The notes beneath the pieces were generated by a model. The model worked only from the letters and a program-made list of their open reading frames with translations, made no database searches and was not told the origin of the DNA. This document shows positions 1,366 through 26,887 of a DNA stretch of 64,000 nucleotides, piece after piece. This stretch comes from Planctomycetia bacterium (GTDB lineage: Bacteria > Planctomycetota > Planctomycetia > Pirellulales > UBA1268), in the NCBI GenBank assembly GCA_037129475.1, contig JBAXUY010000001.1, positions 37,380 to 101,379 on the forward strand, written 5' to 3'. Within the stretch, counting starts at the first letter, position 1; each line of letters begins with the position of its first letter. Made by a program: the position numbers and the translations under genes.

Positions 1366-1373
1366 TGTCGACA
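1366..1373. promoter_or_regulatory. TGTCGACA palindrome (site 1), divergent SDR/epimerase intergenic region
   Basis: aTGTCGACAGTTTca, between gene starts at 1271 (-) and 1472 (+). Confidence 0.5.
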
Positions 1374-1471
1374 GTTTCATTGGCCGATAAAAGGGGCCTC
1401 CCGTGCCGTTCTCCCGGGTCGCCGAAGCAGGTCGCGTGGACGGGCTGGGGGCGTGGGGTATAACGGCTCGC

Positions 1472-2410
1472 GTGAAGACCATCCTGGGTGCCGGCGGCCC
1501 GATCGCCGAAGGACTCGCCGGTGAACTCCGGTGCCGCGGCTGCCGCGACCTGCGGCTCGTGAGCCGCAACCCCCGCAAGGTCGACGCCGCGGACTCGCTG
1601 TTCGCGGCCGACCTCATGGATGCCGAGCGCACGATCGAGGCCGTGCGGGGCAGCGATACGGTGTACTTCACCGCCGGCCTGCCGCCGGTGGCGGCAATCT
1701 GGGAGCGGCAGTTCCCGGTCATCCTGGACAACGCCCTCAAGGCGACACGCAAGGCCCGGGCGAAGTTCGTCTTTTTCGACAACACCTACATGTACCCCCA
1801 GAACGGCCGGCCGCTGACCGAGGAGACGCCGTTCCTGCCGGTGGGCCGCAAGGGCCGGGTGCGCGCGGCGATGGCCTCGCGGTTGCTCGAGGAGATGGCG
1901 CGCGGCGAGATCCCGGTGCTCATCGCGCGTGCCCCGGAGTTTTACGGCCCCGGTAGGACGCGCAGCTTTACCCACGCATTCATCATCGATCCCCTCAAGG
2001 CCGGCCGGAAGCCCCGCGTGCCGGTGCGCGACGACACGCTGCGGACGCTCATCTGGACTCCCGACGCCAGCCGCGCGCTCGCGATCCTCGGTGAAGACCC
2101 GCAGGCGTACGGCCAGACCTGGCACCTGCCCTGCGACGATGCGCGGCTGACGTATCGGCAGTTCGTGGCGCTGGCTGCGGAGGTGTTCGGCCGCGAGCCC
2201 GCCTATACGGTGTTCGGGAAATGGGCGATGGCGGCCGCCGGTTTCACCTCGCGACCGCTGCGCGAGATGCGGGAGCTCCTGCCGCGATACGCCCACGACA
2301 ACGTGTTCGACTCGTCCAAGTTCAAGCGTCGCTTCCCGGACTTCGTGGTGACGACCTATCGCGACGGGCTCTTCGCCATCCGGCCAGGGCAGGACGGGGG
2401 GCTCGGTTGA
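1472..2410 (+). CDS. NAD(P)-binding epimerase/dehydratase-like (atypical SDR/NmrA-like) protein
   Basis: The ORF 1403-2410 has the Rossmann motif ILGAGGPIAEGLAGEL close to a GTG at 1472 (VKTILGAGG), which gives a typical N-terminus. ATG 1403 is the alternative start. Confidence 0.72.
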   Translation: MKTILGAGGPIAEGLAGELRCRGCRDLRLVSRNPRKVDAADSLFAADLMDAERTIEAVRGSDTVYFTAGLPPVAAIWERQFPVILDNALKATRKARAKFVFFDNTYMYPQNGRPLTEETPFLPVGRKGRVRAAMASRLLEEMARGEIPVLIARAPEFYGPGRTRSFTHAFIIDPLKAGRKPRVPVRDDTLRTLIWTPDASRALAILGEDPQAYGQTWHLPCDDARLTYRQFVALAAEVFGREPAYTVFGKWAMAAAGFTSRPLREMRELLPRYAHDNVFDSSKFKRRFPDFVVTTYRDGLFAIRPGQDGGLG

Positions 2411-2461
2411 TCAAGCGCGTCGCGAACCGGAGGCTGAACCGCCCCCACCTGAAATGCCGAC

Positions 2462-2469
2462 TGTCGACA
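2462..2469. promoter_or_regulatory. TGTCGACA palindrome (site 2), upstream of P450
   Basis: cTGTCGACAtatttg, about 120 nt upstream of ATG 2587. TAGACT lies 17 nt downstream of the TCGACA. Confidence 0.5.
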
Positions 2470-2586
2470 TATTTGTGACCGCGACGTAGACTGCGGATCC
2501 GGGTCAGGCCACGGGGCCGCCACGACATCGAGAGGACACGTTTTCTGGGCCCGCCGATTTCGCGGTGGGGATGAATTGGAGGCGCC

Positions 2587-3825
2587 ATGAATCATTCTCA
2601 AGCGATCCCCGACGTGGAGAAGGAACTCGTGTCGCATGAGTTCCTCCGCGATCCGTATCCGCTCCTGCATCACCTCCGAGAGCATGCTCCCGTGTACTGG
2701 AGCGATGCGATCGGCGGCTGGCTGCTGACGCGATACGACGACGTGATGGTGTCGCTCAAGGACACCGCCACCTTCTCCAACGAGAACCGGCTTGGGAAGG
2801 CCGTGGAATACCTCCCTCCGGAGCGGCGGGCCAAGTTCAAGCTGTTCGAGGAGCACTACGCCACCAAGGGCTTGCTGCACTCGGATCCGCCGGACCACAC
2901 CCGCATGCGGGCCGTGATCAACAAGGACTTCACGCCCAGCGTCATCGAGCAGATGCGGCCGGCCATCCAGAAAATCGTGGACGACCTGATCGACGAGGCG
3001 GAACGCCAGGGTGGCATGGACGCGGTGACCGACTTCGCCGCCGCATTGCCGATCGGCGTGATCGCGGAGATCCTCGGCGTGCCCCGATCGGATCGGCATC
3101 TGTTCAAGCGTTGGACCGACATGATCCTCGGCTTTCAGGGCGTGAACAAGCCGAGCGAGGAGGATCTGCTGCGGGCCCAGACCGGCCTGCAGGAGATCCG
3201 CCCCTATCTCCAATCGATGATCGAAGAGCGGCGCCGCCAGCCCCGCGCCGACCTCATGAGCAAGTTCGTGGCCGCCATTTCGGAAGGGGGCCGCATGACG
3301 GAGTCGGAGCTGATCAACACCTGTGTCACGCTGTTCACGGCCGGCCACGAGACGACGCTGTCGCTCATCTCGAGCACGATCTGCACGCTGCTCACCCATC
3401 CCGACCAGCTTGCGCTCCTGCGCGAGCAGCCCGATCTGCTCAAGTCGACGATCGAGGAGTCGCTGCGCTATGAGAGCCCCGTGTCGCGTCAGACGCGTCT
3501 GATGAAGAAAGACACAGAGATGCGAGGGCAGACGCTCCGACAAGGTCAGATCGTATTTCAGATGCTCAATGCCGCGAATCGCGATCCCGAGCAGTTCCCG
3601 GATCCCGACACCTTCTCCATCGCCCGCGAGCCCAACCGCCACATCGCATTCGGCCACGCCGCGCACTTCTGCGTGGGGGCGCCTCTTGCGCGGACGGAAG
3701 GATTCATCGCGGTCGGCACCCTCGTGCAGCGGCTGCCGGGCCTGAAGTTGGTGGACACGACGCCCGACTGGGATCTTGAGAAGCGCAACTCACGGGTGCT
3801 CAACTCGCTGCGAGTGTCTCTGTGA
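2587..3825 (+). CDS. Cytochrome P450
   Basis: 412 aa. I-helix AGHETT, ExxR (ESLRY), and the heme-thiolate loop FGHAAHFCVGAPLAR. Confidence 0.92.
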   Translation: MNHSQAIPDVEKELVSHEFLRDPYPLLHHLREHAPVYWSDAIGGWLLTRYDDVMVSLKDTATFSNENRLGKAVEYLPPERRAKFKLFEEHYATKGLLHSDPPDHTRMRAVINKDFTPSVIEQMRPAIQKIVDDLIDEAERQGGMDAVTDFAAALPIGVIAEILGVPRSDRHLFKRWTDMILGFQGVNKPSEEDLLRAQTGLQEIRPYLQSMIEERRRQPRADLMSKFVAAISEGGRMTESELINTCVTLFTAGHETTLSLISSTICTLLTHPDQLALLREQPDLLKSTIEESLRYESPVSRQTRLMKKDTEMRGQTLRQGQIVFQMLNAANRDPEQFPDPDTFSIAREPNRHIAFGHAAHFCVGAPLARTEGFIAVGTLVQRLPGLKLVDTTPDWDLEKRNSRVLNSLRVSL

Positions 3826-3864
3826 GGCAGCCGGCCTCCTTCCGCCACGACAGGTGACCGCCCG

Positions 3865-5979
3865 ATGCTCGGTGGACGAAACTCGCGACGCTGGGCCGCA
3901 GCGCTGCTGGTCGCCGCTGCCGGGGTCGCGTCACGCGGCGCCGACGCCGGTCAGCAGTGGGAATCGATTGAACACTGGAAAGAGACGTTTCTCGAAGGTC
4001 GGACGGCGCGCCTTCCCGTCAGTTTTCAGTATCGGGGGCAGTCGTCCCGCGACGTGCTCCCGCACTGGACGCGCACGGCGGAGGTGCGCGACACGGACGA
4101 CGGCCGCCGGCTGGCGCGACTCACATTCGTCGATCCGGCGACCGCGCTCGAAGTACGCGTCGAGGCTGTCGTCTACCGAGATTTTCCCGCCGTTGAATGG
4201 GTCGTGTGGTTCCGTAACGGCGGCTCACGACCCACCCCGCTCCTCGAGGATGTGCGGGCCCTCGATGCGGAAGTAGCTACGTTGGCCGACGCGGATCCGG
4301 CCCTCGACCTTCACTACTGCCGGGGCACGAACGTGAATGCCGAGCACCTCCCCGGCCCGGAGGAGTTCCAGCCCGCGTGGTCCGTCGTGCGGCCCGGCGA
4401 GCGGCGACGCTACGTGCCCTACGGCGGCCGGCCCTCCGACACGGTGCTGCCGTTTTTCAGCCTCGCGTCGTCCGGCGGCGAACGCGGCCTGTTCGTCGGG
4501 ATCGGTTGGACGGGGGAGTGGGCGGCGACGTTCACACGGAGCGACGCCGGAGCCACTGCGCTCGTCGCAGGAATCCGGCAGATGCGGGCCAGCCTCGAGC
4601 CCGGCGAGGAAATCCGGACGCCGGCGATTCTCGTGATGAGCTGGCGCGGCGACCGCGTGGCCGACGGGCAGAACCAACTCCGACGCCTGCTCTTGCACCA
4701 CTACACTCCGCGTCACGCCGGCAAGCCGGTCGTGCCGCCGATTTCCGCCGGCCCGCATGCCGTCATCTCCTTCGAGCAGACGTCGGAGGCGAACCTGCTC
4801 GAGTGCATCGAGCACATCTCGGCGCACCGCCTGCCGGTCGACAACTTCTGGCTCGACGCGGGCTGGTACACGTGTCCGCGGGAGCCGAGCGGATGGGACA
4901 AGACGACCGGATCGTGGACCCCGGATCCGACGCGGTTTCCGCGCGGGTTGCGGCCGATCGCCGACGCCGCGAAGCGGCACGGCATGGATTTTCTTGTGTG
5001 GTTCGAGCCGGAGCGGGTGATGCCGGGCACATGGCTGGCGGAGCACCATCCGGAGTGGCTGCTCGAGCCCGCCCCCTTGCTTCCGGAGCGGCGGTACCAG
5101 GTGGACGGCAGGTTCCGACTGCTCGATTTCGGGAATCCCGCGGCGCTCTCCTGGGCGAAGAGCTACTTCTCCCAGTTCGTCCGCGAGCAGGGGGTGAGCA
5201 TCTTCCGCATGGACTGCAATCTACATCCCGTGCTGTATTGGCAGAACGACGAACCACCAGACCGGATCGGCATGCGGGAAACGCGTCACGTGATGGGTCT
5301 CTACGAGTTCTGGGACGCGCTCGCGGCGGCCAATCCGGGGCTGAAACTCGACGTCTGCGCAGGCACCGGCAGCCGCATCGACTTCGAGGTCATGCGCCGT
5401 GCCATGAATCTGACGCGCACCGATGGCGCGTGGTGGAAGCCCGTGCCCGATCAGGCCAAGACCATCGGCCATGCGCCGTGGACGCCGTACACCGGCATCG
5501 GCGCGGTGTCCGATGCGGACTACGATTTCCGGAGCGGCATGGGGGCGGTGTTCTGCGCAAATTTCAACTACCTCGGCGACGACGAAGCCGCGTGGGGGCG
5601 TTGGAAAACACTGCTGTCGACGGTCGACGCGCTCCGCGAGGTCTACCGCGGGGATTTTTATCCGCTCACGGAGTGGAGCCTGGCCGAGGAGGACGTCGCG
5701 GCGTGGCAATACCACCGGCCCGATTTGCACAAGGCCCTGGTGCAGGTGTTCCGCCGGAGCCGGGCGGAGATGCCTGCGGAGGGCTATCGGTTCCGCCTCG
5801 CAGGCCTCGACCCGAAGGCGACCTATGCGGTGCGGGATCTCGACGCACCGACGGAAACGAAGCGGCTCTCCGGCGCCGAGCTGATGACGAACGGCCTGCT
5901 CGTCACCCTGCCGCACAAACCGCAGGCGGCGCTGCTGATCCTGGAAGAGGTCGGGCGAGACTCCCGACCAGAAGAGTAG
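3865..5979 (+). CDS. Secreted glycoside hydrolase, GH36-like (alpha-galactosidase family)
   Basis: 704 aa with an N-terminal signal-like AAALLVAAAGVASRGADA. Motifs FWLDAGWY, RFPRGLRPIADAAKRHGMDFLVWFEPERV, IFRMDCN and DVCAGTGSRIDFE resemble the GH36 catalytic (beta/alpha)8 core. Family assigned from memory, not searched. Confidence 0.78.
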   Translation: MLGGRNSRRWAAALLVAAAGVASRGADAGQQWESIEHWKETFLEGRTARLPVSFQYRGQSSRDVLPHWTRTAEVRDTDDGRRLARLTFVDPATALEVRVEAVVYRDFPAVEWVVWFRNGGSRPTPLLEDVRALDAEVATLADADPALDLHYCRGTNVNAEHLPGPEEFQPAWSVVRPGERRRYVPYGGRPSDTVLPFFSLASSGGERGLFVGIGWTGEWAATFTRSDAGATALVAGIRQMRASLEPGEEIRTPAILVMSWRGDRVADGQNQLRRLLLHHYTPRHAGKPVVPPISAGPHAVISFEQTSEANLLECIEHISAHRLPVDNFWLDAGWYTCPREPSGWDKTTGSWTPDPTRFPRGLRPIADAAKRHGMDFLVWFEPERVMPGTWLAEHHPEWLLEPAPLLPERRYQVDGRFRLLDFGNPAALSWAKSYFSQFVREQGVSIFRMDCNLHPVLYWQNDEPPDRIGMRETRHVMGLYEFWDALAAANPGLKLDVCAGTGSRIDFEVMRRAMNLTRTDGAWWKPVPDQAKTIGHAPWTPYTGIGAVSDADYDFRSGMGAVFCANFNYLGDDEAAWGRWKTLLSTVDALREVYRGDFYPLTEWSLAEEDVAAWQYHRPDLHKALVQVFRRSRAEMPAEGYRFRLAGLDPKATYAVRDLDAPTETKRLSGAELMTNGLLVTLPHKPQAALLILEEVGRDSRPEE

Positions 5980-6067
5980 AAACCCATCGAATCAACGGCG
6001 CCGTCGCCGGACGCGACGGACGCTATGCTCACGTGTGCGTGTTCGATCTCAAGAAAAGGGGGCCGTC

Positions 6068-6967
6068 ATGAAAATCTCCGGATGTCTCAACCGACTCACC
6101 CGAAGCGGTCTAGCGACCAGGCTCGTTTCCAGCATGCGATTGCCGGTGGTGCTCGCCGTGGCCGTGCTGGCTCAATCCGTCGTGGCCGGCGGTGCTGAGA
6201 ACGTGTGGAATGCCTACCAGGACTTTTACCTGGATCCGACGGCTACCGGGTGGCAGGGAGCCGTCTCGCCGTCGAACACGGGAGCCGCGTGGGGTTACTA
6301 TGCGGCGAACGTCAACGGCTATGGCGGATATCCGCGGACGATCGGCGCTTATTTTGCCCCCGGCGCGTTCAGCGCCGACAAGCCCGAGCAAAACCTCTGC
6401 GCCTACTCACCGTCGCACCAGCCACTCGGTCAGGGGAACGCGGTGGTCGGCACCACCAAGTGGGACGACACGAAAGGCACCGGCTTTCCGCGCTACGCCG
6501 ACGACAAAGGCTGGGGTTCGAGCCTCGGCCGGTATGACCTGCCGTGGTTCCCGGCCGCGCCCGGCTATGCCGCGGAAGGCCCCCAGCCACGCGAGAATCG
6601 CATCTGGTTGCAGGCCGGATACCTGCAGAACACTGGCGAGGACGGCAAGCCTTCCGCCGAGGGCATTTGTCCGGTGCTCGTCTGGAAGGCGCCGATGGCG
6701 GGAACCTTCGCCATCACCGGATCATTCCTGATCGGCCGCAACGGCGAGCCGAAGACGAACGGGGCGTCGATCGCGATCGTGGACAGCAAGGGCGACGCGT
6801 TGATGAAAAGAACCAGCGTCGAACAGGGCAAGTCCTACGAGTTCCGGTATTCCAAAAAGTACGAGGAGGGTGACGTCCTGCAGTTTCAGGTCGGCACCGA
6901 CTACAAGACCGGCACGCCGGTGGGTCTCGACGTCACGATTTCCGCTTCCGCGGAGACGGCACCGTGA
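6068..6967 (+). CDS. Secreted protein of unknown function (paralog of 20609-21475)
   Basis: ATG 6068 is preceded by AAAAGGGGG. Signal peptide LPVVLAVAVLAQSVVAGGA. Full-length similarity to the PEP-CTERM protein at 20609-21475 (WNAYQDFYLDPTATGWQGAVSPSNTGAAWGYY vs WNAFNDFYLSPTATGWTGATSPSSTGAAWGYY; GDVLQFQVG vs GDVVQFQVG). Confidence 0.7.
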   Translation: MKISGCLNRLTRSGLATRLVSSMRLPVVLAVAVLAQSVVAGGAENVWNAYQDFYLDPTATGWQGAVSPSNTGAAWGYYAANVNGYGGYPRTIGAYFAPGAFSADKPEQNLCAYSPSHQPLGQGNAVVGTTKWDDTKGTGFPRYADDKGWGSSLGRYDLPWFPAAPGYAAEGPQPRENRIWLQAGYLQNTGEDGKPSAEGICPVLVWKAPMAGTFAITGSFLIGRNGEPKTNGASIAIVDSKGDALMKRTSVEQGKSYEFRYSKKYEEGDVLQFQVGTDYKTGTPVGLDVTISASAETAP

Positions 6968-7015
6968 CGGCCGGAACACACCTCGTTGCGATTCGCGATG
7001 CACTGGGGTCGTGAC

Positions 7016-9754
7016 ATGACTGCACGGGTCGCCGCAGTGCTCGCCGTCGTAGCCGTGGTTTCCGCGGGCTCGGTCCGCGCGGCGGATCCGCAGGTGCGCA
7101 CGGTGAACATCCAGTTCGCGGGCCGCGGCGGAACGCCGCAGGGCGCGGAGGATCCGCCGCCGCCGGCGTACCAGGGCAGGGGTGTCGTCGGGGAGGGCAC
7201 GTTCTGGAATGTGGTCTCGGCGAATTCCCTCAAGCCTCCGCTCGTTCTCGATCCCGTCTCGGGATTCACCGCCGACGAGGGAAACATTCCGGTCGCGCTC
7301 GAACTGGATCACCGTGGCTGGACGGGCGCGGACCACTTTCCGCCCGAGCAGGGGGCGCCGCTCGAGCATCCGCTGCTCAACTCGTATCTCGTGGCCCAGG
7401 GGAAGCCCGCCCGTCTCGTGCTTTCCCGGCTGATCCCGGGCGAACGCTACCGGATCGTCGTCTTCGCCTCCAACTCCCGAGGCGGGGCCGGTGCCCGGAT
7501 CCAGCCCCGGGGCGGACAACGCGCCGACGCGACCGGCGCCGCAACGTCGCCGTTTCCCGTGCGGGGCGAAGACTACGTGGAGTTCGACGCCGTCGCGGCC
7601 GACGCCTCCGGCGACGTCACGCTCGACGTCCTGCCCGGTGAAGGGGCGGCGGTGGTCAACGGCCTGCAAATCCACGGCCCCTTCCACGAGGCCCCGCAGA
7701 CGGCGTCCTCCGCTCCGTCGATTCGAGACTGGTCCGCCGCGTGGCTGCCCGAACCCGAACACGAAACGGTCCGTGGCAAGCTTCCCTTCAGTTTCTCGTA
7801 CGGTGGAAAGTCCTTTCGGGAACTCGCCCCCACGTGGACGTTCACCGCGAAAAAGATCTCCGCACACGAGACCGTGTCGACGTGGCGTGATCCCGACACC
7901 GGACTGGTGGTCGAGCTGCGCGCCAAGACATTCGCGGATTTTCCTGTGGTGGAGTGGGTCGCGACCCTCTCGAATCAGGGCGACCGGCCGACCCCTGTCA
8001 TCTCCCATCTCAAGGGGCTCGACAGCCAGTTCCTCGGCGAGCCGAAGCACGGCTACACGCTGCATCACAACCTCGGCAGCAGGACGTTGGTCGACGACTT
8101 CGCGCCGAAGCGCACCGTGCTCGAGCCGGACGCCGCCGTGACGATCTCCACCGCGGGCGGCCGTCCGGCCATGGCGAACCTCCCCTTCTTCAACGTCTCC
8201 TGGAAGAGCGGCGGAGCCATCGTCGCCGTGGGTTGGCCCGGCCAGTGGGAGGCGGTCTTTTCGCGGAAGGAGTCCGGCACCCGCCTGGGCATCACGGCTG
8301 GCCAGGAGAGCCTCGAAACGTCGCTCCGTCCACGGGAAACGATTCGCACGCCGCGCATGGCGCTGCTCATCTACGAGGGCGACTTCATCGCCGGGCAGAA
8401 CCTGTGGCGGCGCTGGGCCATCGCCCATCTGATTCCGCGCGTCGGCGGGCGGCCGGTCGGCCCGATCTTCGCGGCCACCACCTCCCATCAGACCCGCGAG
8501 ATGGAGCTTGCGACGACGCGAAATCAGAAGGAATACATCGACGGCTGGATCGCCCACGACATCAAGCCCGACTTTTGGTGGATGGACGCCGGGTGGTACG
8601 AAGGGGACGGGTCGTGGGTCTCCACCGGAACGTGGTCGGTCGACAAAAAACGCTTTCCCGGCGGCCTTGGAGAGATCTCCGGCCACGCGCGCTCGCTCGG
8701 CATCGGCTCGATCCTGTGGTTCGAGCCCGAGCGCGTCTGCCCAGGAAGCGAGCTGTTCCGGACCAAGCCGGAGTGGCTGTTGGCCCCGGTGAATCTGCCC
8801 CCGGAACTGCTCTACCAAAAAGACCGGGACTGGAGGCTGCTCGATCTCGGGAATCCGGAGGCCCGGGCCTGGATCACCGAGCGCGTGAGCGGCCTGCTCG
8901 CCAGCGAGAAGATCGATTGCTATCGGCAGGATTTCAACATGGATCCGCTCTACTACTGGCGCTCGGTCGACGAGCCCGGGCGGACGGGCATCGCCGAAAA
9001 TCTCCACGTGCAGGGCTACCTCCGCTTCTGGGACGACCTCGAGCAGCGGCATCCCGGGTTGCTGATTGACAGCTGCGCCAGCGGCGGCCGTCGCAACGAC
9101 CTCGAGGCCCTCAGCCGCGCGGTTCCGTTCCTGCGGAGCGACTACGTGTTCGAGCCGACCGGGCTGCAGGGGCAGACCTACGGCCTCTCGTTCTGGTTGC
9201 CCTACGCCGGCACTGGGGTCGCTGACGCCGTCTCCCTGCGGGCGTCGAAGATCGCCGCCAGCGGGCATTATCTGCCGCCCCCCGGCCCCGCGGACCGCAT
9301 CTGGACCGACTACCTGTTCCGCAGCCAGATGGCCAGCGCCCTCGTGTCGGGCATCGACTCGCTGAACGAGCACGTGGACTTCGATCGCCTGCGCGTGCTC
9401 TTCGCGCAGTGGCGGCGCGTTGCGACGAACTACTCCGGCGACTACTACCCGTTGACCGGGTACTCCACGGGCAATGATTGCTGGATGGCGTTTCAGTTCG
9501 ACCGGCCGGAGGATGGCGCAGGGATGGTGCAGGCTTTCCGGCGGCCCGAATCCCCGTACACCGCCGTGGTTCTGCCGCTCCGCGGTCTCGACAAGGACGC
9601 GCAGTACGTCGTGCGCGACATCGACCGGGACGAGCCCCGGACGTTCGCGGGTGCGGAACTCCTCGAGACCGGCCTCCCGGTGGAGATCGCCACGAAACCC
9701 GGCGCCGTCATCATCACCTACGAAAAAACAGTTCCCGCAGGGCAGGGCCGCTGA
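7016..9754 (+). CDS. Secreted GH36-like glycoside hydrolase with about 210-aa extra N-terminal beta-sandwich-like domain
   Basis: Signal peptide MTARVAAVLAVVAVVSAGSVRA. Core motifs FWWMDAGWY, KRFPGGLGEISGHARSLGIGSILWFEPERV, CYRQDFNMDP and DSCASGGRRNDLE. Paralogous to 3865-5979 from residue about 240 onward. ATG 6986 is an alternative start. Confidence 0.8.
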   Translation: MTARVAAVLAVVAVVSAGSVRAADPQVRTVNIQFAGRGGTPQGAEDPPPPAYQGRGVVGEGTFWNVVSANSLKPPLVLDPVSGFTADEGNIPVALELDHRGWTGADHFPPEQGAPLEHPLLNSYLVAQGKPARLVLSRLIPGERYRIVVFASNSRGGAGARIQPRGGQRADATGAATSPFPVRGEDYVEFDAVAADASGDVTLDVLPGEGAAVVNGLQIHGPFHEAPQTASSAPSIRDWSAAWLPEPEHETVRGKLPFSFSYGGKSFRELAPTWTFTAKKISAHETVSTWRDPDTGLVVELRAKTFADFPVVEWVATLSNQGDRPTPVISHLKGLDSQFLGEPKHGYTLHHNLGSRTLVDDFAPKRTVLEPDAAVTISTAGGRPAMANLPFFNVSWKSGGAIVAVGWPGQWEAVFSRKESGTRLGITAGQESLETSLRPRETIRTPRMALLIYEGDFIAGQNLWRRWAIAHLIPRVGGRPVGPIFAATTSHQTREMELATTRNQKEYIDGWIAHDIKPDFWWMDAGWYEGDGSWVSTGTWSVDKKRFPGGLGEISGHARSLGIGSILWFEPERVCPGSELFRTKPEWLLAPVNLPPELLYQKDRDWRLLDLGNPEARAWITERVSGLLASEKIDCYRQDFNMDPLYYWRSVDEPGRTGIAENLHVQGYLRFWDDLEQRHPGLLIDSCASGGRRNDLEALSRAVPFLRSDYVFEPTGLQGQTYGLSFWLPYAGTGVADAVSLRASKIAASGHYLPPPGPADRIWTDYLFRSQMASALVSGIDSLNEHVDFDRLRVLFAQWRRVATNYSGDYYPLTGYSTGNDCWMAFQFDRPEDGAGMVQAFRRPESPYTAVVLPLRGLDKDAQYVVRDIDRDEPRTFAGAELLETGLPVEIATKPGAVIITYEKTVPAGQGR

Positions 9755-9823
9755 CCGCCCCCGCTCGACGGATCACTCGACGGACTCGTCTGACAACATC
9801 TCGTGCGACAGAAAGGCTCGGCC

Positions 9824-10663
9824 ATGGCGAAACCGACGATCGGAGCGTTGCTCGCGGGCAAGGGCAAGCGGCAACTGACGATGACGAACGCGGCCGACTA
9901 CAACACCGCCCGCGCCGCGGCCGAGGCGGGCATCGACATCATTCTCGCCCGCGGGATCACCGACGAGCGGCAGATCGGGCTGGTGCTCGACCAGATCGTC
10001 GCCGGTGCCCCGAGCACGGTGATCGTCTGCAATCTCCCCGCGACCATCGCCTACGTCAGCGACGCGGAGGCGATCCGGGCGGCGATGATCGCCCGGGACC
10101 ACGGGGCGGACATCATCTACTCCTCGGGCAACTCGCTGCGCCGCTTCGAGGCCATGGCCGAGCTCGGCATCAACTTCGGCGGTCACGTGGGCCTCGTTCC
10201 CATCCGGGCGAGCCGCGAGGGCGGGCTCGGCGCGCGGGGAAAGAGTCTCGACCAGGCGATCCGGATCTACGAGGAGACGCTCGCCTTCCAGAGGGCGGGC
10301 GCCGTCATGGTGGAGATGGAGTGCGTCGCGGCCGACGTCGCGGCCGAGATCACGAGGCGGGTCGACATCCTTGTGATGTCGCTCGGCAGCGGGCCCGGGT
10401 GCGACGGGCAGTTTCTTTACAGCACGGACCTCCTGGGGTTCCACGAGCCGCGTTTCCCGGGGATGAACAAGCCGTACGAGGGGCCGCTGCCCAGGCACGC
10501 CAGGCGCTACGCGAACCTGTTCGACGAGGCGAAGCGCGGCTTTGCCGCGTTCAAGGCCGATGTCGAGCGCGGCGACTTCCCCGCACAGGCCGAGACGATC
10601 AAGGTTGACCCATCCGTGGTCGCGGCCTTCCGGTCTCGGATCGACGGGTCCGCCTCCTCGTGA
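9824..10663 (+). CDS. PanB-like (3-methyl-2-oxobutanoate hydroxymethyltransferase fold / PEP-mutase superfamily) protein, divergent
   Basis: C-terminal half matches the PanB pattern (GHVGLVP, QRAGAVMVEMECVAADVAAEIT, SLGSGPGCDGQFLYSTDLLG). The N-terminal catalytic motifs are substituted (see findings). Confidence 0.68.
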   Translation: MAKPTIGALLAGKGKRQLTMTNAADYNTARAAAEAGIDIILARGITDERQIGLVLDQIVAGAPSTVIVCNLPATIAYVSDAEAIRAAMIARDHGADIIYSSGNSLRRFEAMAELGINFGGHVGLVPIRASREGGLGARGKSLDQAIRIYEETLAFQRAGAVMVEMECVAADVAAEITRRVDILVMSLGSGPGCDGQFLYSTDLLGFHEPRFPGMNKPYEGPLPRHARRYANLFDEAKRGFAAFKADVERGDFPAQAETIKVDPSVVAAFRSRIDGSASS

Positions 10664-11530: not shown

Positions 11531-11614
11531 GTCGAATAGGGCGCCAAAGCGTTCATCTGCGGTGCGGGCAGTGTTCCTGACTCACTGAGAACGACGATAG
11601 CGGCTTTTTCTTTC

Positions 11615-11623
11615 CGTCGACAG
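11615..11623. promoter_or_regulatory. Imperfect copy CGTCGACAG (site 3), purU/MFS divergent region
   Basis: ccGTCGACAGTCGACcg, one mismatch to the core, with GTCGAC duplicated. Confidence 0.35.
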
Positions 11624-11784
11624 TCGACCGTCTGACGCTCTTGATTGCAAGCCGTGTTCGAGTTGTCGGGCCCCGGTCCGGATGGTATGGTACGACGACA
11701 TTCGCCACGAATCGGTGGCGAAGCGCGGGGAAACCATGCAGGGCAAACAGTCGCCACGGATTTCCTCAACCCATTGGTGAAGGT

Positions 11785-13212: not shown

Positions 13213-13235
13213 GCCGCCGGACACCCCCTGCACCC

Positions 13236-14618: not shown

Positions 14619-14619
14619 C

Positions 14620-17084: not shown

Positions 17085-17198
17085 GCCAGAACTCCGTCGG
17101 GTGTGCTCGCTCTGTGCCCGCTGAACGTGTTCGGATCGACCCCCGCGTCAGGTGTAGCGCGTCATCAAGGCGTCAGCCCCGCTCACCGCGACCTGCTC

Positions 17199-17206
17199 TG
17201 TCGACA
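17199..17206. promoter_or_regulatory. TGTCGACA palindrome (site 4), DUF1559/2-hydroxyacid dehydrogenase divergent region
   Basis: cTGTCGACAaattatag. Confidence 0.5.
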
Positions 17207-17265
17207 AATTATAGGGAGAGCCACGAAGCCTGTCCAGCGATGCATCCAGCCCCTTTCACCAAGCC

Positions 17266-17273
17266 TGTCGACA
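17266..17273. promoter_or_regulatory. TGTCGACA palindrome (site 5), same intergenic region, 67 bp from site 4
   Basis: cTGTCGACAGTTTacc, about 85 nt upstream of ATG 17358. Confidence 0.5.
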
Positions 17274-17357
17274 GTTTACCATTCGGGCTCACCGGCGGAC
17301 AGGTTTCGCGCGCGACCCGTTCCCCGCTCGAGCCCGCGCAGACGAAGGATGCCGTCC

Positions 17358-18338
17358 ATGAAGATCGTCGTCACCGATTACGCCTTCGATGATCTGGGGG
17401 TCGAGGAGCGGGTGGCGGCCGCGGCGGGCGCGACCGTCGTCGGCGCCCAGACCAAGGATCCGAAGCAGCTCGCCGCGGCGGTCGCCGACGCCGACGCCGT
17501 GATCACGCAGTTCGCCCCGGTGAACGCCGAAGTGATCAACGCGATGCGGAAGGCGCGGGCGATCGTCCGCTACGGGATCGGCGTCGACAACGTCGACCTG
17601 GCCGCGGCCAAGGCCCGTGGCATCCCCGTCTGCAACATCCCCGACTACTGCATCGACGAGGTGGCCGACCACACGCTCGCCTTCATCCTCGCGCTCACGC
17701 GGCAGGTCGCACCGCAGAGCCGGCTGGTGCACGAAGGGGGCTGGAAGCTCGCCGCCCCGATCCCGGCCTTCCGCACGCTCGCCAGGATGACGTGCGGCGT
17801 CGTCGGCTTCGGCCGGATCGGCCGGGGCGTGGTGCGGCGGCTCGTGGGCTTCGGCGGCCGCGTGCTCGTGAGCGACCCCGTGGCGCCTGCCGATGCGATC
17901 GCCGCCGCAGGGGCGGAGGCCGCCCCGCTGGGCAAACTCCTCGCCGAGAGCGATCTCGTCACGCTCCATTGTCCCTCGCTGCCCGAGACGAAGGGGCTGA
18001 TCAACGCCACGACGCTCGCGGCGGCCAAGCAGGGCTTGCTCGTCGTGAATCTCTCCCGCGGGGATCTCGTCGACCCGGCCGCGCTCGTCGCCGCGCTCGA
18101 CAGCGGCAAGGTGGCCGGCGCCGCGCTCGACGTGTTCGCTCCGGAGCCGATTCCCGCCGGCCATCCGATCCTCGGCCGCAGCAACGTGATCCTCGCCCCG
18201 CACGTGGCGAGCGTGAGCGCCGCAGCCGTCGAGCGGCTGCGCACCACCGCGGCCACGATCGCTGTGGCCGCGCTCCGGGGTGCCCCGCTCACGTCGATCG
18301 TCAACGGCGTCGCGGGGCCGCGGATCGTGTCAGCCTGA
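17358..18338 (+). CDS. D-isomer-specific 2-hydroxyacid dehydrogenase (PGDH/CtBP-like)
   Basis: Start MKIVVTDYAF. NAD motif VGFGRIGRGVVRRL, then LSRGDLVD, LDVFAPEP and APHVAS (catalytic His). Confidence 0.88.
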   Translation: MKIVVTDYAFDDLGVEERVAAAAGATVVGAQTKDPKQLAAAVADADAVITQFAPVNAEVINAMRKARAIVRYGIGVDNVDLAAAKARGIPVCNIPDYCIDEVADHTLAFILALTRQVAPQSRLVHEGGWKLAAPIPAFRTLARMTCGVVGFGRIGRGVVRRLVGFGGRVLVSDPVAPADAIAAAGAEAAPLGKLLAESDLVTLHCPSLPETKGLINATTLAAAKQGLLVVNLSRGDLVDPAALVAALDSGKVAGAALDVFAPEPIPAGHPILGRSNVILAPHVASVSAAAVERLRTTAATIAVAALRGAPLTSIVNGVAGPRIVSA

Positions 18339-18383
18339 GCCGTGCTTGGCGATCCTGGTGAAACGAGGAGAAACGAGTCGCCC

Positions 18384-19436
18384 ATGTCCACGCCGATTGC
18401 CCCCGCCGATCTTGCCGCGTTCGTCCGTGCCGCCGGAGAGAAGGCCGGCCTTTCGCCCGAGGCGGCCGATACGCTCGCCGAGCCGCTCGTGCTCGCCGAC
18501 ATGATGGGCGTGCACACGCACGGCACGAAGTTGCTCGCGGGCTACTTGCGCAAGCTGTTGGCCTGCGGCTACCGGCCGACGGGTGTGCCGAAGATCGTGC
18601 GCGAGGGGCCAGCCTGGGCCGTCGTCGACGGTGACGCGGCCCTCGGCCAGGTCGGCTGCACGATGGCGATGCGGCTGGCGATCGCGAAGGCGAAGCAGGT
18701 GGGCGTGGCGTCGGTCTCGATCCGCAACACGGGCCACATCGGCGCTGCCGGCTACTACGCGCTCATGGCCGCACGGGAAGGCTGCCTGGGGCTCGTCGCG
18801 GGCAACGACATACCCACCGTCGCGGCGCCCGGCTCGCGCGGGGCCGTGTTCGGCAGCAATCCGCTGGCCTATGCGGCGCCGGTGCCCGGCGGCGATCCGC
18901 TGCTCTTCGATATCTCGACGGCCGCCGTGGCCGGCGGCAAGGTCTACGCCGCCGTCGCCCGGGGCGAGCCGATCCCGGGCGACTGGCTCATCGGCGAAGA
19001 CGGCCGGCCCACGAGCGACGGCAGCCTCTATCCGGCAAAGGCGGTGCTCGCCCCGATGGCAGGCCACAAGGGATACGGGTTCGCGATGTTCGCCGAACTC
19101 CTCTCCGGCGTGCTGAGCGGCGGGATGGTGGCGTTGCAGGTCGGACACTGGATGGTCGATCCACCGGAAGTGCCTTCGCGGCACTCGGCGGGCTTCGTCG
19201 TGATCGACGTGGAAGCGATCTGCGACCGTGAGGCCTACGCCGCAGCCATGAACACGATCGTGCGGCACGTCCACGGGGCGCCCACCGTCGCCGGTATCGA
19301 GCGCGTGTTTCTGCCCGGCGAGCTGGAGTGGAGGCGGCACAAGGCGGCTGCATCGGCCGGCATTCCGCTGCCTGCCGATGTCCGCGAGAAATTGGCCGCC
19401 GCCGCCGCTCTGGTGGGGCTCGCCTCGCCCGCCTGA
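18384..19436 (+). CDS. Ldh_2 family (malate/L-lactate/ureidoglycolate-type) dehydrogenase
   Basis: 350 aa. Motifs HGTKLLAGYL, NTGHIGAAGYYA and MAGHKGYGFAM are typical of the Ldh_2 family. Confidence 0.8.
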   Translation: MSTPIAPADLAAFVRAAGEKAGLSPEAADTLAEPLVLADMMGVHTHGTKLLAGYLRKLLACGYRPTGVPKIVREGPAWAVVDGDAALGQVGCTMAMRLAIAKAKQVGVASVSIRNTGHIGAAGYYALMAAREGCLGLVAGNDIPTVAAPGSRGAVFGSNPLAYAAPVPGGDPLLFDISTAAVAGGKVYAAVARGEPIPGDWLIGEDGRPTSDGSLYPAKAVLAPMAGHKGYGFAMFAELLSGVLSGGMVALQVGHWMVDPPEVPSRHSAGFVVIDVEAICDREAYAAAMNTIVRHVHGAPTVAGIERVFLPGELEWRRHKAAASAGIPLPADVREKLAAAAALVGLASPA

Positions 19437-19477
19437 CGGCCTGCCGAGAAATACGGCCTGTTTCCAGCCATTTTGCC

Positions 19478-19485
19478 TGTCGACA
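19478..19485. promoter_or_regulatory. TGTCGACA palindrome (site 6), upstream of AraC regulator
   Basis: cTGTCGACAGaatc. Confidence 0.5.
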
Positions 19486-19511
19486 GAATCGCGTGCATCC
19501 GCTAGGCTATC

Positions 19512-19519
19512 TGTCGACA
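19512..19519. promoter_or_regulatory. TGTCGACA palindrome (site 7), 34 bp from site 6
   Basis: cTGTCGACAGTTgcg, about 40 nt upstream of ATG 19559. Confidence 0.5.
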
Positions 19520-19558
19520 GTTGCGCACGAAGCGCACTTGGGCAGTCGGGGCGGGGCC

Positions 19559-20377
19559 ATGCGACGAGCCATCCCTACCAGCAAACCCTCACGCGGCGCA
19601 CGCACGCCGGCGTCCCGGGATTCGGCTGCCGAACGGAAGCAGTTTCTCGATTCGATCGCGCCCGGCAGCCACTTCCATCGCGTCTTCGACGGTCTCGACG
19701 ACGTGCTCTTCTTTGCCCGAAACCGTGCCGGAGAGATACTCTTCTTCAGCCGGGGCATTCAGCCACACGACGCGCTCGCGCACGACGGTCAGGACGCCGG
19801 GGTGGACGACGACGCGCGGTCACGCTGCCGGCCGGCGCCGGAATATGTGGCGACCGACCGCGACGTAATCGAGTCGCAGAAGCCGTCTCTCGGGCACGTG
19901 GAGATGTGGTTCGACGAGGTCGGCCTGCCCGATTGGTATGAGGTGAACAAGTATCCGATCTTCGATCGCAAGGGGGCGGTGATCGGCGTCATGGGAACGC
20001 TGCGCCGCTTCCGCGGGGCCGCCCCGGGCAACGCGGCGTTCGGCCGGCTCGCCCCGGCTCTGGCGATCCTCGGCAACGACCTGCAGAAGTTTCCCCCGCT
20101 CGAGCGGCTGGCGGCGGCGTGCCGGATGTCGCCCCGCAATCTGCAGCGTGCCTTCCACGACGTGTTCGATTTCGGCCCCCGGGATTACTGGATGAAGTGC
20201 CGGATCCGGGCGGCCTGCGCTGCACTGCGGGCCGGAGCGAAATCGCAGACTGATATCGCGCTTTCGCTCGGATTTTGCGACCAGGCCAACTTTTCACAGC
20301 ACTTCCATCGGCACACCGGAATCACACCCTCGGCCTACTCGAGGCAGGCCCGGCCGACGAAACGGGGTGCCCAGTGA
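19559..20377 (+). CDS. AraC family transcriptional regulator with N-terminal PAS-like sensor region
   Basis: C-terminal double HTH LAAACRMSPRNLQRAFHDVF...IALSLGFCDQANFSQHFHRHTGITPSAY. Start re-picked at ATG 19559. Two TGTCGACA sites lie just upstream. Confidence 0.8.
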   Translation: MRRAIPTSKPSRGARTPASRDSAAERKQFLDSIAPGSHFHRVFDGLDDVLFFARNRAGEILFFSRGIQPHDALAHDGQDAGVDDDARSRCRPAPEYVATDRDVIESQKPSLGHVEMWFDEVGLPDWYEVNKYPIFDRKGAVIGVMGTLRRFRGAAPGNAAFGRLAPALAILGNDLQKFPPLERLAAACRMSPRNLQRAFHDVFDFGPRDYWMKCRIRAACAALRAGAKSQTDIALSLGFCDQANFSQHFHRHTGITPSAYSRQARPTKRGAQ

Positions 20378-21537: not shown

Positions 21538-21600
21538 CAGCCCTGTGCGGGTCGTGAGGCGAAAAGCCGGCACGGCCCGCACAGGGCTGTCGGCGTTTTC
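21538..21600 (+). terminator. Rho-independent terminator-like hairpin after the PEP-CTERM gene
   Basis: Perfect 14-bp inverted repeat CAGCCCTGTGCGGG (21538-21551) / CCCGCACAGGGCTG (21576-21589), followed by TCGGCGTTTTC. Confidence 0.5.
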
Positions 21601-21631
21601 GGGGCAGGGCGGGCGTCCGTTGTGAAAAATC

Positions 21632-21639
21632 TGTCGACA
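21632..21639. promoter_or_regulatory. TGTCGACA palindrome (site 8), upstream of E1 alpha-beta gene
   Basis: tcTGTCGACAGTTTagact, about 68 nt upstream of ATG 21707. Confidence 0.5.
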
Positions 21640-21706
21640 GTTTAGACTCCCAGTCGGTGGATCTCGCCGCCGTCAGCATCGGCACCGTCCCGAATGGAGG
21701 AGACGC

Positions 21707-23758: not shown

Positions 23759-23786
23759 CACGGAACGACGAGGAGCATGACACGCG

Positions 23787-25247: not shown

Positions 25248-25283
25248 CTTTAGTCGGCAGGATGAGATGACGTCGGAGCGAAC

Positions 25284-25964
25284 CTAGGGATTCGCCTTGT
25301 CGTCGTCGGCCGGCGCCTTCGGCATCACCTTGATCCAGCCTGCGACGTGCTTGTGGGCTGCTGCGGCGGCCTTCTTCGGGTCGCCCGAGCGGATGGCGTC
25401 GAGGAGCGTCTGATGGGCCTCGGCGGTCTCCTGCCTGGTGCGCTTGGTGACCGGCTGATGTCGCATCTGCATCTGGGCGAGCCAGAGGCCGACCTGATCG
25501 CGGAGAGAGTTCCAGCAGAGCAGGAGCCGGCGGTTGCCCGCCGCGCGGACGATCGTGTCGTGGAATTCCGCATCGAGCCGGGAGACGTCGGCGAGCGTCT
25601 TTACCGACCTCGTGGCGGCGATGTTCGCGGCCAGCGCGTTGAACGTGGAGGCCTTCGCCCGCTCGGCGGCCAGGGAAGCCGCGACGGGATCGATCATCAG
25701 CCGGACCGTGTGGATCTCGTCGATGTCCAGCGGGCTGAGCACGGGCACGCGAGTACGGCCCGTGGCGTCGAACTCCACGAGGCCCCGCAATTCCAACTCG
25801 ATGAGCGCCTCGCGGATCGGCGCCCGGCTGACGCCGAGCATCTCCGAGAGCGACGGCTCCGAAATCTTCGAGCCCGGCTTGAACTGGCCGGCCATGATCG
25901 CCCGGGCCAGACGGGAGCAAACAGTCTGCGACAGGTTGTTGCGTTCGACGCGGGCGAGAGGCAT
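25284..25964 (-). CDS. GntR family (FadR-subfamily-like) transcriptional regulator
   Basis: Start re-picked at MPLARVERNN. Winged HTH SEPSLSEMLGVSRAPIREALIELELRGLVE plus an all-helical FCD-like C-terminal domain. The rest of ORF 25284-26522 is antisense to the FAH gene. Confidence 0.88.
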   Translation of the reverse strand: MPLARVERNNLSQTVCSRLARAIMAGQFKPGSKISEPSLSEMLGVSRAPIREALIELELRGLVEFDATGRTRVPVLSPLDIDEIHTVRLMIDPVAASLAAERAKASTFNALAANIAATRSVKTLADVSRLDAEFHDTIVRAAGNRRLLLCWNSLRDQVGLWLAQMQMRHQPVTKRTRQETAEAHQTLLDAIRSGDPKKAAAAAHKHVAGWIKVMPKAPADDDKANP

Positions 25965-25999
25965 AGCGATGAGCCGATTATAGACAAAAAACCATGGAT

Positions 26000-26007
26000 T
26001 GTCGACG
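26000..26007. promoter_or_regulatory. Near-copy TGTCGACG (site 9), 36 nt upstream of the GntR gene start
   Basis: atTGTCGACGgat, 7 of 8 positions match. Confidence 0.35.
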
Positions 26008-26044
26008 GATGCCCGTGCGGCGGCCCCGGCTGCCGGCCGTCGCG

Positions 26045-26845
26045 TCAGGCCTCCTCGACCACAGGATTCGTGAGCCGTCCGATTTTCTCGATCTCGATCG
26101 TCACACTGTCGCCGGGCTTCAGGAACACCGGCGGCTTGCGGGCGAAGCCCACGCCGTGGGGCGTGCCGGTGAGGATCACCGTGCCGGGGTTCAGGATCAT
26201 GCTCGCCGACATGAACTCGATGATCGCGGGAACGTCGAAGATCATGTCGTTCGTATTCCAGTCCTGCAGTGTCTGACCGTTGAGGATCGTGCGGATCGCG
26301 AGCGCGTTGGGGTTCGGGATCTCGTCGGTCGTCACGAGCGCGGGGCCGAGCGGGCAGAACGTGGCGAAGGTCTTGCCGCGGCACCACTGACCGCCGCCGC
26401 CATTCCGCTGCCAATCGCGGGCGGAGACGTCGTTGGCACACGTGTAGCCGAGCACGTGCTTCAGCGCATCGGCCCGACCGACGTTGTGGCACCGCTTGCC
26501 GATCACCACCGCCAGTTCGCACTCGTAGTCGACCTCGTCGCTGCGGAGCTTCCGGGGGAGCACGATCGGGTCGCCGGGGTTCTGGAGCGTGCCCGAGTTC
26601 TTCATGAAGAGCACGGGGTGGGCCGGCGGTTCGGCGTTGCTCTCCGCGGCGTGCTGCTTGTAGTTGAGGCCGATGCAGAGGATGTCGCGGGGCACGAGCG
26701 GGGCGAGGAGTTTCTCGACCGTGGCCGGCGTGCCGGTGTCGCGGAGGCCGCCGAAGAGATCGCCCTCGAGGAGTGTCGTGCGGCCGTCATCGTGAAGCCG
26801 CCCAAAATGCTCGCGGCCGGAGGAGAGGAAGCGGACGATTTTCAT
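26045..26845 (-). CDS. Fumarylacetoacetate hydrolase (FAH) family protein
   Basis: Start MKIVRFLSSGREHFG. Motifs ILCIGLNYKQHAAE, DYECELAVVIG and VILTGTPHGVG. Confidence 0.88.
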   Translation of the reverse strand: MKIVRFLSSGREHFGRLHDDGRTTLLEGDLFGGLRDTGTPATVEKLLAPLVPRDILCIGLNYKQHAAESNAEPPAHPVLFMKNSGTLQNPGDPIVLPRKLRSDEVDYECELAVVIGKRCHNVGRADALKHVLGYTCANDVSARDWQRNGGGGQWCRGKTFATFCPLGPALVTTDEIPNPNALAIRTILNGQTLQDWNTNDMIFDVPAIIEFMSASMILNPGTVILTGTPHGVGFARKPPVFLKPGDSVTIEIEKIGRLTNPVVEEA

Positions 26846-26873
26846 GGCGTGGACCTCGGGGGAACGTGTGTGT

Positions 26874-26887
26874 AACTGTCGACAGTT
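26874..26887. promoter_or_regulatory. Perfect 14-bp palindrome AACTGTCGACAGTT (site 10), FAH/LpdA-like divergent region
   Basis: The longest symmetric version of the motif. It lies 29 nt from the FAH start (26845) and 132 nt from the LpdA-like start (27019). Confidence 0.55.

Follow-up and report, generated by a model that had tools for sequence, protein, structure and literature searches.

A 16-bp palindrome most likely serves a GntR-type repressor that would switch sugar-acid and pyruvate-dehydrogenase genes in an uncultured freshwater planctomycete

We analysed a 64-kb window of DNA (64,000 nucleotides; contig JBAXUY010000001.1, positions 37,380 to 101,379 of the forward strand, assembly GCA_037129475.1) from a Planctomycetia bacterium of the Pirellulales, in which an 8-bp palindrome, TGTCGACA, recurs between the genes of a catabolic island. 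Its repetition is real and goes far beyond chance. The palindrome is very probably the core of the operator of a GntR-family regulator of the FadR/FCD subfamily that is encoded at 25284-25964 on the minus strand of the window, and this regulator most likely works as a repressor that switches a block of sugar-acid and pyruvate-dehydrogenase genes. An earlier note on this DNA, made from the sequence alone, had a local-regulon operator bound by this GntR protein as its first choice; the domains of the protein, the published operator rule, a link between motif and regulator family across phyla and phylogenetic footprinting all support that choice.

Exact copies of TGTCGACA lie at 1366, 2462, 17199, 17266, 19478, 19512, 21632, 26877 and 28962. 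These and all further counts refer to the window, which is ~67% G+C, and not to the whole genome. The nine copies compare with 1.24 ± 1.24 in 100 dinucleotide-preserving shuffles of the window, none of which reached nine. Genes were mapped by Pfam matches, which confirmed the earlier gene map, and by a codon-likelihood gene caller that reproduces the Pfam map and leaves 9.9% of the window intergenic. Eight of the nine copies fall in this share (binomial p = 7e-8), where intergenic composition alone predicts 0.07-0.12 copies (Poisson P(>=8) = 1e-14). They lie about 30-150 nt from the nearest start codon. The earlier note had the eight positions and these gaps right; it had also spoken of at least eight promoter regions, and this was too many, as the eight sites occupy only six intergenic regions, between 1.3 and 27 kb, three of which are divergent. 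Its statement that intergenic DNA of 28-64 kb is free of the motif stands: sites are found in 6 of the 15 intergenic regions of 1-28 kb and in none of the 15 beyond (Fisher p = 0.017).

The ninth copy lies, as reported before, inside a GT4 gene (28962; 28958-28973 as a full-length site). It scores 13.7 bits, lacks the flanking consensus and is probably a chance copy. Copies with seven of eight bases do exist in coding DNA, at 5615, 7875 and 11404, 1-2 nt away from where the earlier note had placed them, and the two one-mismatch copies that it had listed, at 11615 (CGTCGACA) and 26000 (TGTCGACG), are present.

A motif model built from 41 unique intergenic sites, pooled from the window and related loci, describes a symmetric 16-bp palindrome, AAACTGTCGACAGTTT. 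C or G borders the core in 73% of the half-sites; A and T dominate the arms despite the 67% GC genome. An asymmetry suspected earlier, a plus-strand CAGTT extension facing the gene, is not general: at 25 sites with a single downstream gene, taken from the window and orthologous loci, the better half-site pointed toward the gene eight times and away from it eight times. Scanning the window with the resulting position weight matrix gave eight intergenic sites at 18-27 bits with a clear gap below. Weak candidates in DNA left uncalled by the gene caller start at 11611 (12.3 bits), 21219 (10.4 bits) and 25996 (10.0 bits); the one at 21219 sits within a Pfam-supported PEP-CTERM open reading frame. 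The predicted operators are as follows.

1362..1377: operator 1, AAAATGTCGACAGTTT, 26.7 bits, in the divergent region between an SDR gene (minus strand) and an epimerase-family gene (plus strand)
2458..2473: operator 2, CGACTGTCGACATATT, 20.7 bits, upstream of the P450-GH36 gene string
17195..17210: operator 3, 18.1 bits, directly 3' of the TATAAT of a minus-strand promoter-like element facing the DUF1559 gene
17262..17277: operator 4, AGCCTGTCGACAGTTT, 22.9 bits; the 2-hydroxyacid dehydrogenase gene starts 84 nt downstream
19474..19489: operator 5, 19.7 bits, upstream of the AraC-family gene
19508..19523: operator 6, 22.6 bits, 34 bp from operator 5 and just past a TAGGCT hexamer
21628..21643: operator 7, AATCTGTCGACAGTTT, 27.4 bits, the best of the window; the fused E1 alpha/beta gene starts 67 nt downstream
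26873..26888: operator 8, TAACTGTCGACAGTTC, 23.6 bits, between the FAH-family (minus strand) and Lpd-like (plus strand) genes; includes the perfect 14-mer AACTGTCGACAGTT at 26874-26887, confirmed from the earlier note
25996..26011: weak operator ahead of the GntR gene, core TGTCGACG, 10.0 bits, kept in the related contig L081 (see below)
11611..11626: weak candidate operator, TTTCCGTCGACAGTCG, 12.3 bits, between purU (minus strand) and the MFS-FGGY kinase-KDPG (2-keto-3-deoxy-6-phosphogluconate) aldolase string (plus strand); carries an overlapping extra GTCGAC half-site

It is hardly credible that the motif is a chance or compositional effect, a dispersed REP-like repeat or a by-product of the SalI-type palindrome GTCGAC. 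GTCGAC is common in this high-GC DNA, with many xGTCGACx copies in coding regions, and one exact copy of the motif itself is coding; yet the shuffles never reached the observed count, the intergenic enrichment is extreme, and the sites are conserved in position across relatives. The copies share only the 16-bp core, and since their flanks are unrelated they are not copies of a repeat element.

The shape of the motif is that expected for a FadR-type regulator. Published operators of the subfamily follow the consensus NyGTM-N0-1-KACNy and have TKGT/ACMA boxes; the GntR, HpxS, HypR, MdcY, PrpR and UxuR groups show a 2-nt GT..AC spacing, and extra half-sites are frequent 7-12 nt away from the centre (Suvorova et al. 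2015, PMC4494728). The consensus of the 41 sites follows this rule, its GT-C-G-AC being an N0 site of the 2-nt-spacing class. The published site table holds 123 rows with a TGTC-GACA core, among them those of a transcription factor with the helix VSRAPIREAF and sites ATTGTCGACAAT, PhnR rows with ACTGTTGACAGT and PrpR rows with ATTGTC[A/T]ACAAT; the comparative set includes no Planctomycetota or Verrucomicrobiota (PMC4494728).

The proposed regulator has the corresponding protein architecture. Its GntR domain (PF00392, 53.2 bits against a gathering score of 27) covers approximately residues 12-73 of the 226-aa protein, or residues 198-259 in the numbering of the long open reading frame, and is followed by a C-terminal FCD domain (PF07729, 80.3 bits against 24.3). 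The protein passes no NCBIfam equivalog cut-off: the best match is PhnR, with 104 bits against 271, and the PdhR model (48.1 against 330) matches the helix-turn-helix (HTH) region only. The closest solved structure is 7xp0 (E = 6e-19), for which a literature search found no paper.

Homologues 63-93% identical to the regulator are numerous in uncultured Planctomycetes, and the best match in a representative genome is 79% identical; a look-up of the exact protein sequence gave only a 3.6-kb contig (L085). For comparison, 80 loci (given L numbers here) were fetched from representative genomes with a homologue profile, and 78 of them were usable for counting upstream sites. The loci form three groups: orthologues 64-79% identical, in metagenome-assembled genomes mostly labelled Pirellulales, Planctomycetia or Planctomycetota; relatives 37-50% identical, in Planctomycetota and Verrucomicrobiota; and relatives 30-37% identical, in Chloroflexota and Actinomycetota. 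Several isolate names in the first group (ME..., ELA..., LacPavin, K_DeepCast) presumably denote lake sampling series. In 35 of the 78 loci, spread over four phyla, the 200 bp ahead of the regulator gene hold an exact TGTCGACA, and in nine more they hold a one-mismatch copy. Among the 37-50% identical relatives the site stands upstream of 14 of 23 regulator genes vs 10 of 287 other genes (p = 2e-12), and among the 30-37% group upstream of 7 of 17 vs 9 of 292 (p = 3e-6). Judging from these loci, the recognition helix VSRAP[IV]REAL and the operator core go together across four phyla, as protein-DNA recognition predicts.

Phylogenetic footprinting, a check that the earlier note had proposed, found the sites kept in syntenic intergenic regions while the surrounding DNA diverged. 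The contig L081, which carries a 93%-identical regulator, keeps the block FAH-GntR / E2-E1 / PEP-CTERM / AraC / Ldh_2 / 2-hydroxyacid dehydrogenase // DUF1559 and has six exact sites in the same intergenic regions, which are themselves only 29-47% identical to those of the window. The double site ahead of the AraC-family gene has the same 34-bp spacing in both (19474-19523 in the window, L081:16509-16558), with a TAGG.T hexamer (CCGCTAGG.T) conserved between the two sites, and the E1 site of L081 keeps ..CTGTCGACAGTTTA.ACTC. The spacer between FAH and GntR genes is 81% identical, including CCGTCGACAAT and a TATAAT/TACAAT hexamer. In the region between the 2-hydroxyacid dehydrogenase and DUF1559 genes, the two sites are 67 bp apart in the window and 119 bp apart in L081. 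Across the orthologous loci, 28 of 31 copies of TGTCGACA are intergenic (p = 1e-24). Ahead of the 2-hydroxyacid dehydrogenase, 6/6 orthologous loci retain the site; exact sites also occur in the intergenic region upstream of KDPG-aldolase orthologues (L003, L004, L012), upstream of FAH (L001, L007) and upstream of Ldh_2 (L003).

The same loci bear on the second candidate of the earlier note, namely the AraC-family regulator (19559-20377) as the protein that binds the palindrome and governs the island, a reading that we consider highly improbable. Its gene does have two strong sites 34 bp apart, both kept in L081, but the 27 orthologous loci, which hold 28 intergenic sites, showed no AraC homologue within 10 kb of the regulator. 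The only AraC match among the 80 loci, in L050, is 33% identical; apart from it and L081, the site-bearing loci lack such a homologue within that distance. Sites read by AraC-family proteins are usually longer and non-palindromic, or arranged as direct repeats; the motif here matches the published GntR/FadR rule. Furthermore, the two operators enclose a promoter-like TCGACA-17-TAGGCT, as expected of a repressed target. The AraC gene appears to be a target of the palindrome-binding regulator and not the source of the binder, and a second tier of control behind the double operator is possible.

A further alternative is unlikely: a paralogous FCD-GntR with this helix, or another regulator encoded outside the window, might be what binds the motif, and the local GntR gene would then be just one of its targets. 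In its favour, several paralogous clades share both the helix VSRAP[IV]REAL and the core operator, the local regulator's own site is weak (10 bits), and regulators beyond the window are possible given that only the window sequence was read. Against this, the orthologous loci have the FAH-GntR / E1-E2 block together with the sites, the sites cluster around the local regulator gene and are absent from the other 36 kb, and nothing in the data requires a second regulator.

How the sites lie relative to promoters speaks to their function. A consensus scan for sigma-70-like hexamer pairs found three strong elements, each of which involves a motif site; further elements were read by eye. The regulator's own promoter-like element is TCGACA-17-TATAAT on the minus strand (26005..25977, 11/12 matches), in which the weak site is the -35 hexamer. 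A second minus-strand element, TGGACA-17-TATAAT (17236..17208, 11/12), faces the DUF1559 gene, and operator 3 lies over its expected start point. The third, TCGACA-17-TAGACT at 2464..2492 on the plus strand, lies upstream of the P450 gene and takes its TCGACA from operator 2, so that the TAGACT which the earlier note had seen 17 nt downstream of this site is borne out. By eye, operator 5 gives a TCGACA 17 nt ahead of TAGGCT, with operator 6 after this hexamer, and operator 7 falls in the spacer of TTGTGA-17-TAGACT, 3 nt before the TAGACT. The sites at 21632 and 17266 are each 3 nt ahead of a TAnnnT hexamer.

The earlier note had also considered the motif a promoter element, and we weighed the possibility that it is the -35 TCGACA of housekeeping promoters, or an alternative sigma site, in place of an operator. 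TCGACA is 5/6 of TTGACA and stands 17 nt upstream of a -10-like hexamer at 2464, at 26005 (minus strand) and, by eye, at 19480. This part of the reading holds: at three elements the site supplies or overlaps the -35 position. Elsewhere it does not, since a distance of 16-18 nt to a -10 hexamer is confined to these three copies, and other sites lie past TATAAT (17199), in the spacer (21632) or past TAGGCT (19512). There is no reason for a -35 element to be a symmetric 16-mer, the motif is absent from the 15 intergenic regions of 28-64 kb, and it follows GntR homologues into Actinomycetota and Chloroflexota. We therefore regard the promoter-element reading as very unlikely. Sites that vary in position yet never miss the core promoter are laid out like repressor operators and not like a fixed promoter element; the motif is best read as an operator that sometimes overlaps the -35. 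This overlap, which includes the regulator's own promoter-like element, points to repression.

We infer the following mechanism from the family of the protein and the placement of its sites. A regulator dimer would sit on the 16-bp palindrome AAACTGTCGACAGTTT, with one winged-helix domain on each TGTC half-site. As the sites overlap the -35, the spacer or the start region after the -10, binding should block RNA polymerase and so repress transcription. Release of the repressor would then come from a small carboxylate that binds the FCD domain; the pathway itself probably supplies this effector as an intermediate or product, for example a 2-keto-3-deoxy sugar acid, pyruvate or lactate. The predicted regulon would comprise the SDR and epimerase genes, the P450-GH36 string, the DUF1559 gene, the 2-hydroxyacid dehydrogenase and Ldh_2 genes, the AraC-family regulator with its double operator, the pyruvate-dehydrogenase-like E1-E2 genes, the FAH-family hydrolase and the Lpd-like flavoprotein, and, through weaker sites, the regulator's own promoter and the MFS-kinase-KDPG aldolase string.

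Several observations weigh against assigning the palindrome to the GntR protein at 25284-25964. The comparison loci were retrieved by peptide patterns that include the recognition helix VSRAP[IV]REAL, which nearly all of them carry; the cross-phylum result is therefore a helix-operator association and does not testify independently to orthology. As each locus was also centred on the regulator, finding the regulator near sites follows from the design. The promoter of the local regulator gene carries only a one-mismatch, 10-bit copy, and in the closest orthologues (L001-L010) no exact site directly precedes the gene, so that autoregulation there would have to run via the FAH promoter. Paralogous regulators with the same helix exist in related lineages, and the rest of the genome outside the 64-kb window may hold more sites or paralogues. 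Finally, a scan not anchored on the regulator, in which metagenome contigs were searched for the perfect 16-mer, returned 120 stretches, 80 of them in contigs below 50% G+C with no regulator nearby; these look like the chance matches of an A/T-armed 16-mer in a very large collection. The same scan found a GntR homologue in 13 of the 120 stretches, adjacent to the site in ~11 of them. In 6 of the 120 stretches the strict recognition-helix pattern lay no more than 450 nt from the site and read away from it, vs 1 hit in 357 kb far from the sites. It lends modest support to the link between operator and regulator.

Comparison with described systems places the proposed repressor close to two of them. 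The Pseudomonas aeruginosa protein PrpR is a GntR-family repressor of the 2-methylcitrate cycle, with a predicted motif, ATTGTCGACAAT, 84 bp upstream of its own gene, and binds its own upstream region in electrophoretic mobility shift assays (PMC9765439). Both proteins combine GntR and FCD domains, and both systems have palindromic operators with the identical 8-bp core TGTCGACA, a 2-nt GT..AC spacing and a site upstream of the regulator's own gene, here the weak site at the -35 (kept in L081) and the upstream sites of 35 of 78 homologues. The HTH sequence of 7xp0 equals a PrpR row of the published table (PMC4494728), and the HTH of the window's regulator, SEP...GVSRAPIREAL, resembles SEP...GISRGPLREAI of PrpR. 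However, similarity to the PrpR-like chain is distant (E = 6e-19), and the operator flanks are AAC/GTT here and ATT/AAT in PrpR; set against the 12-nt palindrome ATTGTCGACAAT, the core is identical, with C/G (73%) and A/T beside it here and T/A in PrpR. The regulon in this planctomycete consists of sugar-acid and 2-oxoacid dehydrogenase genes, and Pfam scans of the genes at 0.4-34 kb found no citrate-synthase-like, PEP-mutase/isocitrate-lyase-like or MmgE/PrpD domains. With no methylcitrate genes near the sites and only distant similarity, we rejected the regulator as a PrpR orthologue.

In Escherichia coli, PdhR is an FCD-type GntR repressor of pdhR-aceEF-lpd that is released by pyruvate. The window repeats this arrangement, with an FCD-GntR gene beside E1, E2 and Lpd-like genes and operators at E1 and at the regulator's own promoter, and the logic would be the same, that of a carboxylate-sensing repressor of a 2-oxoacid dehydrogenase complex. 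The regulon is much wider here, and the spacer is 2 nt, unlike the PdhR box, which falls in the 3-nt GT..AC class (PMC4494728). This spacer and the 48.1 bits against a cut-off of 330 led us to reject the regulator as PdhR. With the FadR subfamily at large (FadR, LldR, GlcC, DgoR, UxuR, PhnR) it shares domain architecture, operator rule, A/T-rich arms and extra adjacent half-sites, seen as GTCGAC beside the core at 11615 and in many related loci; the published PhnR motif, ACTGTTGACAGT, is one central base from ACTGTCGACAGT. It differs from the subfamily in reaching no curated equivalog cut-off. By analogy, the regulator is a proposed carboxylate-sensing FCD repressor that would work like PrpR or PdhR while standing outside both orthologous groups.

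The regulator and the genes around the sites are listed here, with target status predicted from the sites.

25284..25964, minus strand: proposed regulator gene, GntR winged HTH plus FCD, 226 aa, recognition helix GVSRAPIREAL
26045..26845, minus strand (start 26845): FAH-family hydrolase, predicted target, on the same strand as the GntR gene and upstream of it
27019..28407, plus strand: Lpd-like flavoprotein, predicted target divergent from FAH; passes the NCBIfam cut-off for NAD(P)H-quinone dehydrogenase PRK07845
21707..25247, plus strand: fused E1 alpha/beta and E2 of a pyruvate-dehydrogenase-like complex, predicted target operon
21538..21589, plus strand: terminator-like hairpin, 19 pairs followed by CGGCGTTTTCGG, -54.8 kcal/mol, z = -4.4
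19559..20377, plus strand: AraC-family regulator gene, predicted target behind the double operator
17358..19436, plus strand: D-2-hydroxyacid dehydrogenase and Ldh_2-family dehydrogenase, predicted target operon
16044..17084, minus strand: DUF1559 protein with N-terminal methylation motif, predicted target
11641-15303, plus strand: MFS sugar transporter, FGGY kinase and KDPG aldolase (Pfam); PurU (minus strand) is on the other side of the candidate operator
2587..10663, plus strand: P450, GH36, unknown gene, GH36 and PanB-like gene, probable target string (operon extent putative)
1403..2410, plus strand: epimerase-family gene, predicted target of operator 1
429..1271, minus strand: SDR gene, predicted target of operator 1

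Pfam also mapped an EF-hand gene (minus strand) beside the DUF1559 gene, a PEP-CTERM protein and the GT4 gene (minus strand). The DUF1559 protein with its methylation motif and the PEP-CTERM protein are planctomycete hallmarks. NCBIfam gave no equivalog for FAH, E1, E2, the 2-hydroxyacid dehydrogenase, Ldh_2 or the kinase. The best match of the FAH-family hydrolase is 2,4-didehydro-3-deoxy-L-rhamnonate hydrolase, under the curated cut-off, and those of E1 and E2 are pyruvate-dehydrogenase models, both also under their cut-offs. In relatives, sites also stand near genes for KDPG aldolase and aldehyde dehydrogenase, and a PfkB kinase is a further neighbour. On the strength of the two GH36 genes, the MFS transporter, the FGGY kinase, the below-cut-off matches and the KDPG aldolase, PfkB and aldehyde dehydrogenase neighbours, the regulon might serve the uptake of a sugar or deoxy-sugar and its breakdown via 2-keto-3-deoxy acids to pyruvate, lactate or lactaldehyde and then to acetyl-CoA; we hold this pathway with low confidence.

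The hairpin at 21538..21589 separates the PEP-CTERM gene from the E1 promoter and operator, and the aligned region is kept in L081. Its position upstream of the E1 operator suggests that E1-E2 are transcribed from their own regulated promoter. E1 alpha and beta are fused in a single 683-aa protein (21707-23758), and every orthologous locus has the same fusion, at 80-93% identity, usually with an SDR gene ahead of it. The PEP-CTERM gene region (20378-21475) has weak coding statistics, with a G+C of 0.57 over 20378-21265; homologues 56-60% identical stand at the same place in L003, L005 and L081.

To our knowledge, Planctomycetota have few described transcription-factor regulons. A dimeric GntR repressor on a palindrome is in itself a textbook mechanism, and systems of this kind are well known. 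What goes beyond routine is a clean regulon prediction in a poorly studied phylum: the regulator, a 16-bp operator and about ten target promoters can be read from the DNA of an uncultured freshwater lineage, which yields a testable regulon, and the grouping of GH36, P450, sugar-acid steps, dehydrogenases and a second regulator aids annotation of the catabolic island. The other point beyond routine is a link to gene families that occur beside the regulator in relatives. PSCyt/PSD or DUF1501-type genes flank it in 38 of the 59 fetched loci from Planctomycetota and Verrucomicrobiota. In the window's own lineage, besides sugar-acid and pyruvate-dehydrogenase genes, sites precede proteins of ~1400 aa with PSCyt1 and PSD2-5/PSCyt3; in relatives they also precede PSCyt2/PSD1 proteins (DUF1549/DUF1553) followed by DUF1501, and the usual layout in the 37-50% identity group is site, GntR, DUF1549/DUF1553, DUF1501. 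Examples of loci with sites ahead of PSCyt/PSD genes (DUF1585/1587/1588/1592/1595 or DUF1549/DUF1553) and DUF1501 are these.

L022:10370-14605
L026:1851-6122
L008:4424-8596
L025:7097-12827
L035:1992-4916
L042:9929-14451
L033:9908-14623
L029:1071-9933

The window itself has no PSCyt, PSD or DUF1501 matches at E <= 1e-15, and no paper in the library searched links GntR regulators with these families. We tentatively suggest, as a reading that is plausible and short of probable, that FCD-GntR proteins with the helix VSRAP[IV]REAL and TGTCGACA form a control system for uncharacterised PSCyt/PSD and DUF1501 cassettes across the Planctomycetes-Verrucomicrobia-Chlamydiae (PVC) group. If so, these very abundant unknown families would be tied to carboxylate or sugar-acid catabolism, and there would be a route to finding their inducer.

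Some relatives depart from the common pattern. In a sub-clade (L040, L044, L045, L047, L048, L052) the regulator has the helix VSRAP[IV]REAL with PES in place of SEP ahead of it and the wing GTARV in place of GRTRV, and no TGTCGACA was found upstream of the regulator gene; its operator may differ or sit elsewhere. A 1.7-kb metagenome contig of 42% G+C (L104:1-1674, PVBE012257584.1) holds 44 copies of TGTCGACA, closely and irregularly spaced; this repeat array has nothing to do with the regulon. In two Anaerolineae loci (L056:9920-14996, L080:9912-14801) the regulator homologue has an ATTGTCGACAATC-type site and is followed by a lyase of the dihydrodipicolinate synthase (DHDPS) family; in L056 a BNR/sialidase-like protein comes after the lyase, and the cluster looks sialic-acid-like. 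In Microbacteriaceae (L069:8223-10690, L073:8203-10645) the site lies between the regulator and a divergent SBP_bac_5 gene of an ATP-binding cassette (ABC) transporter.

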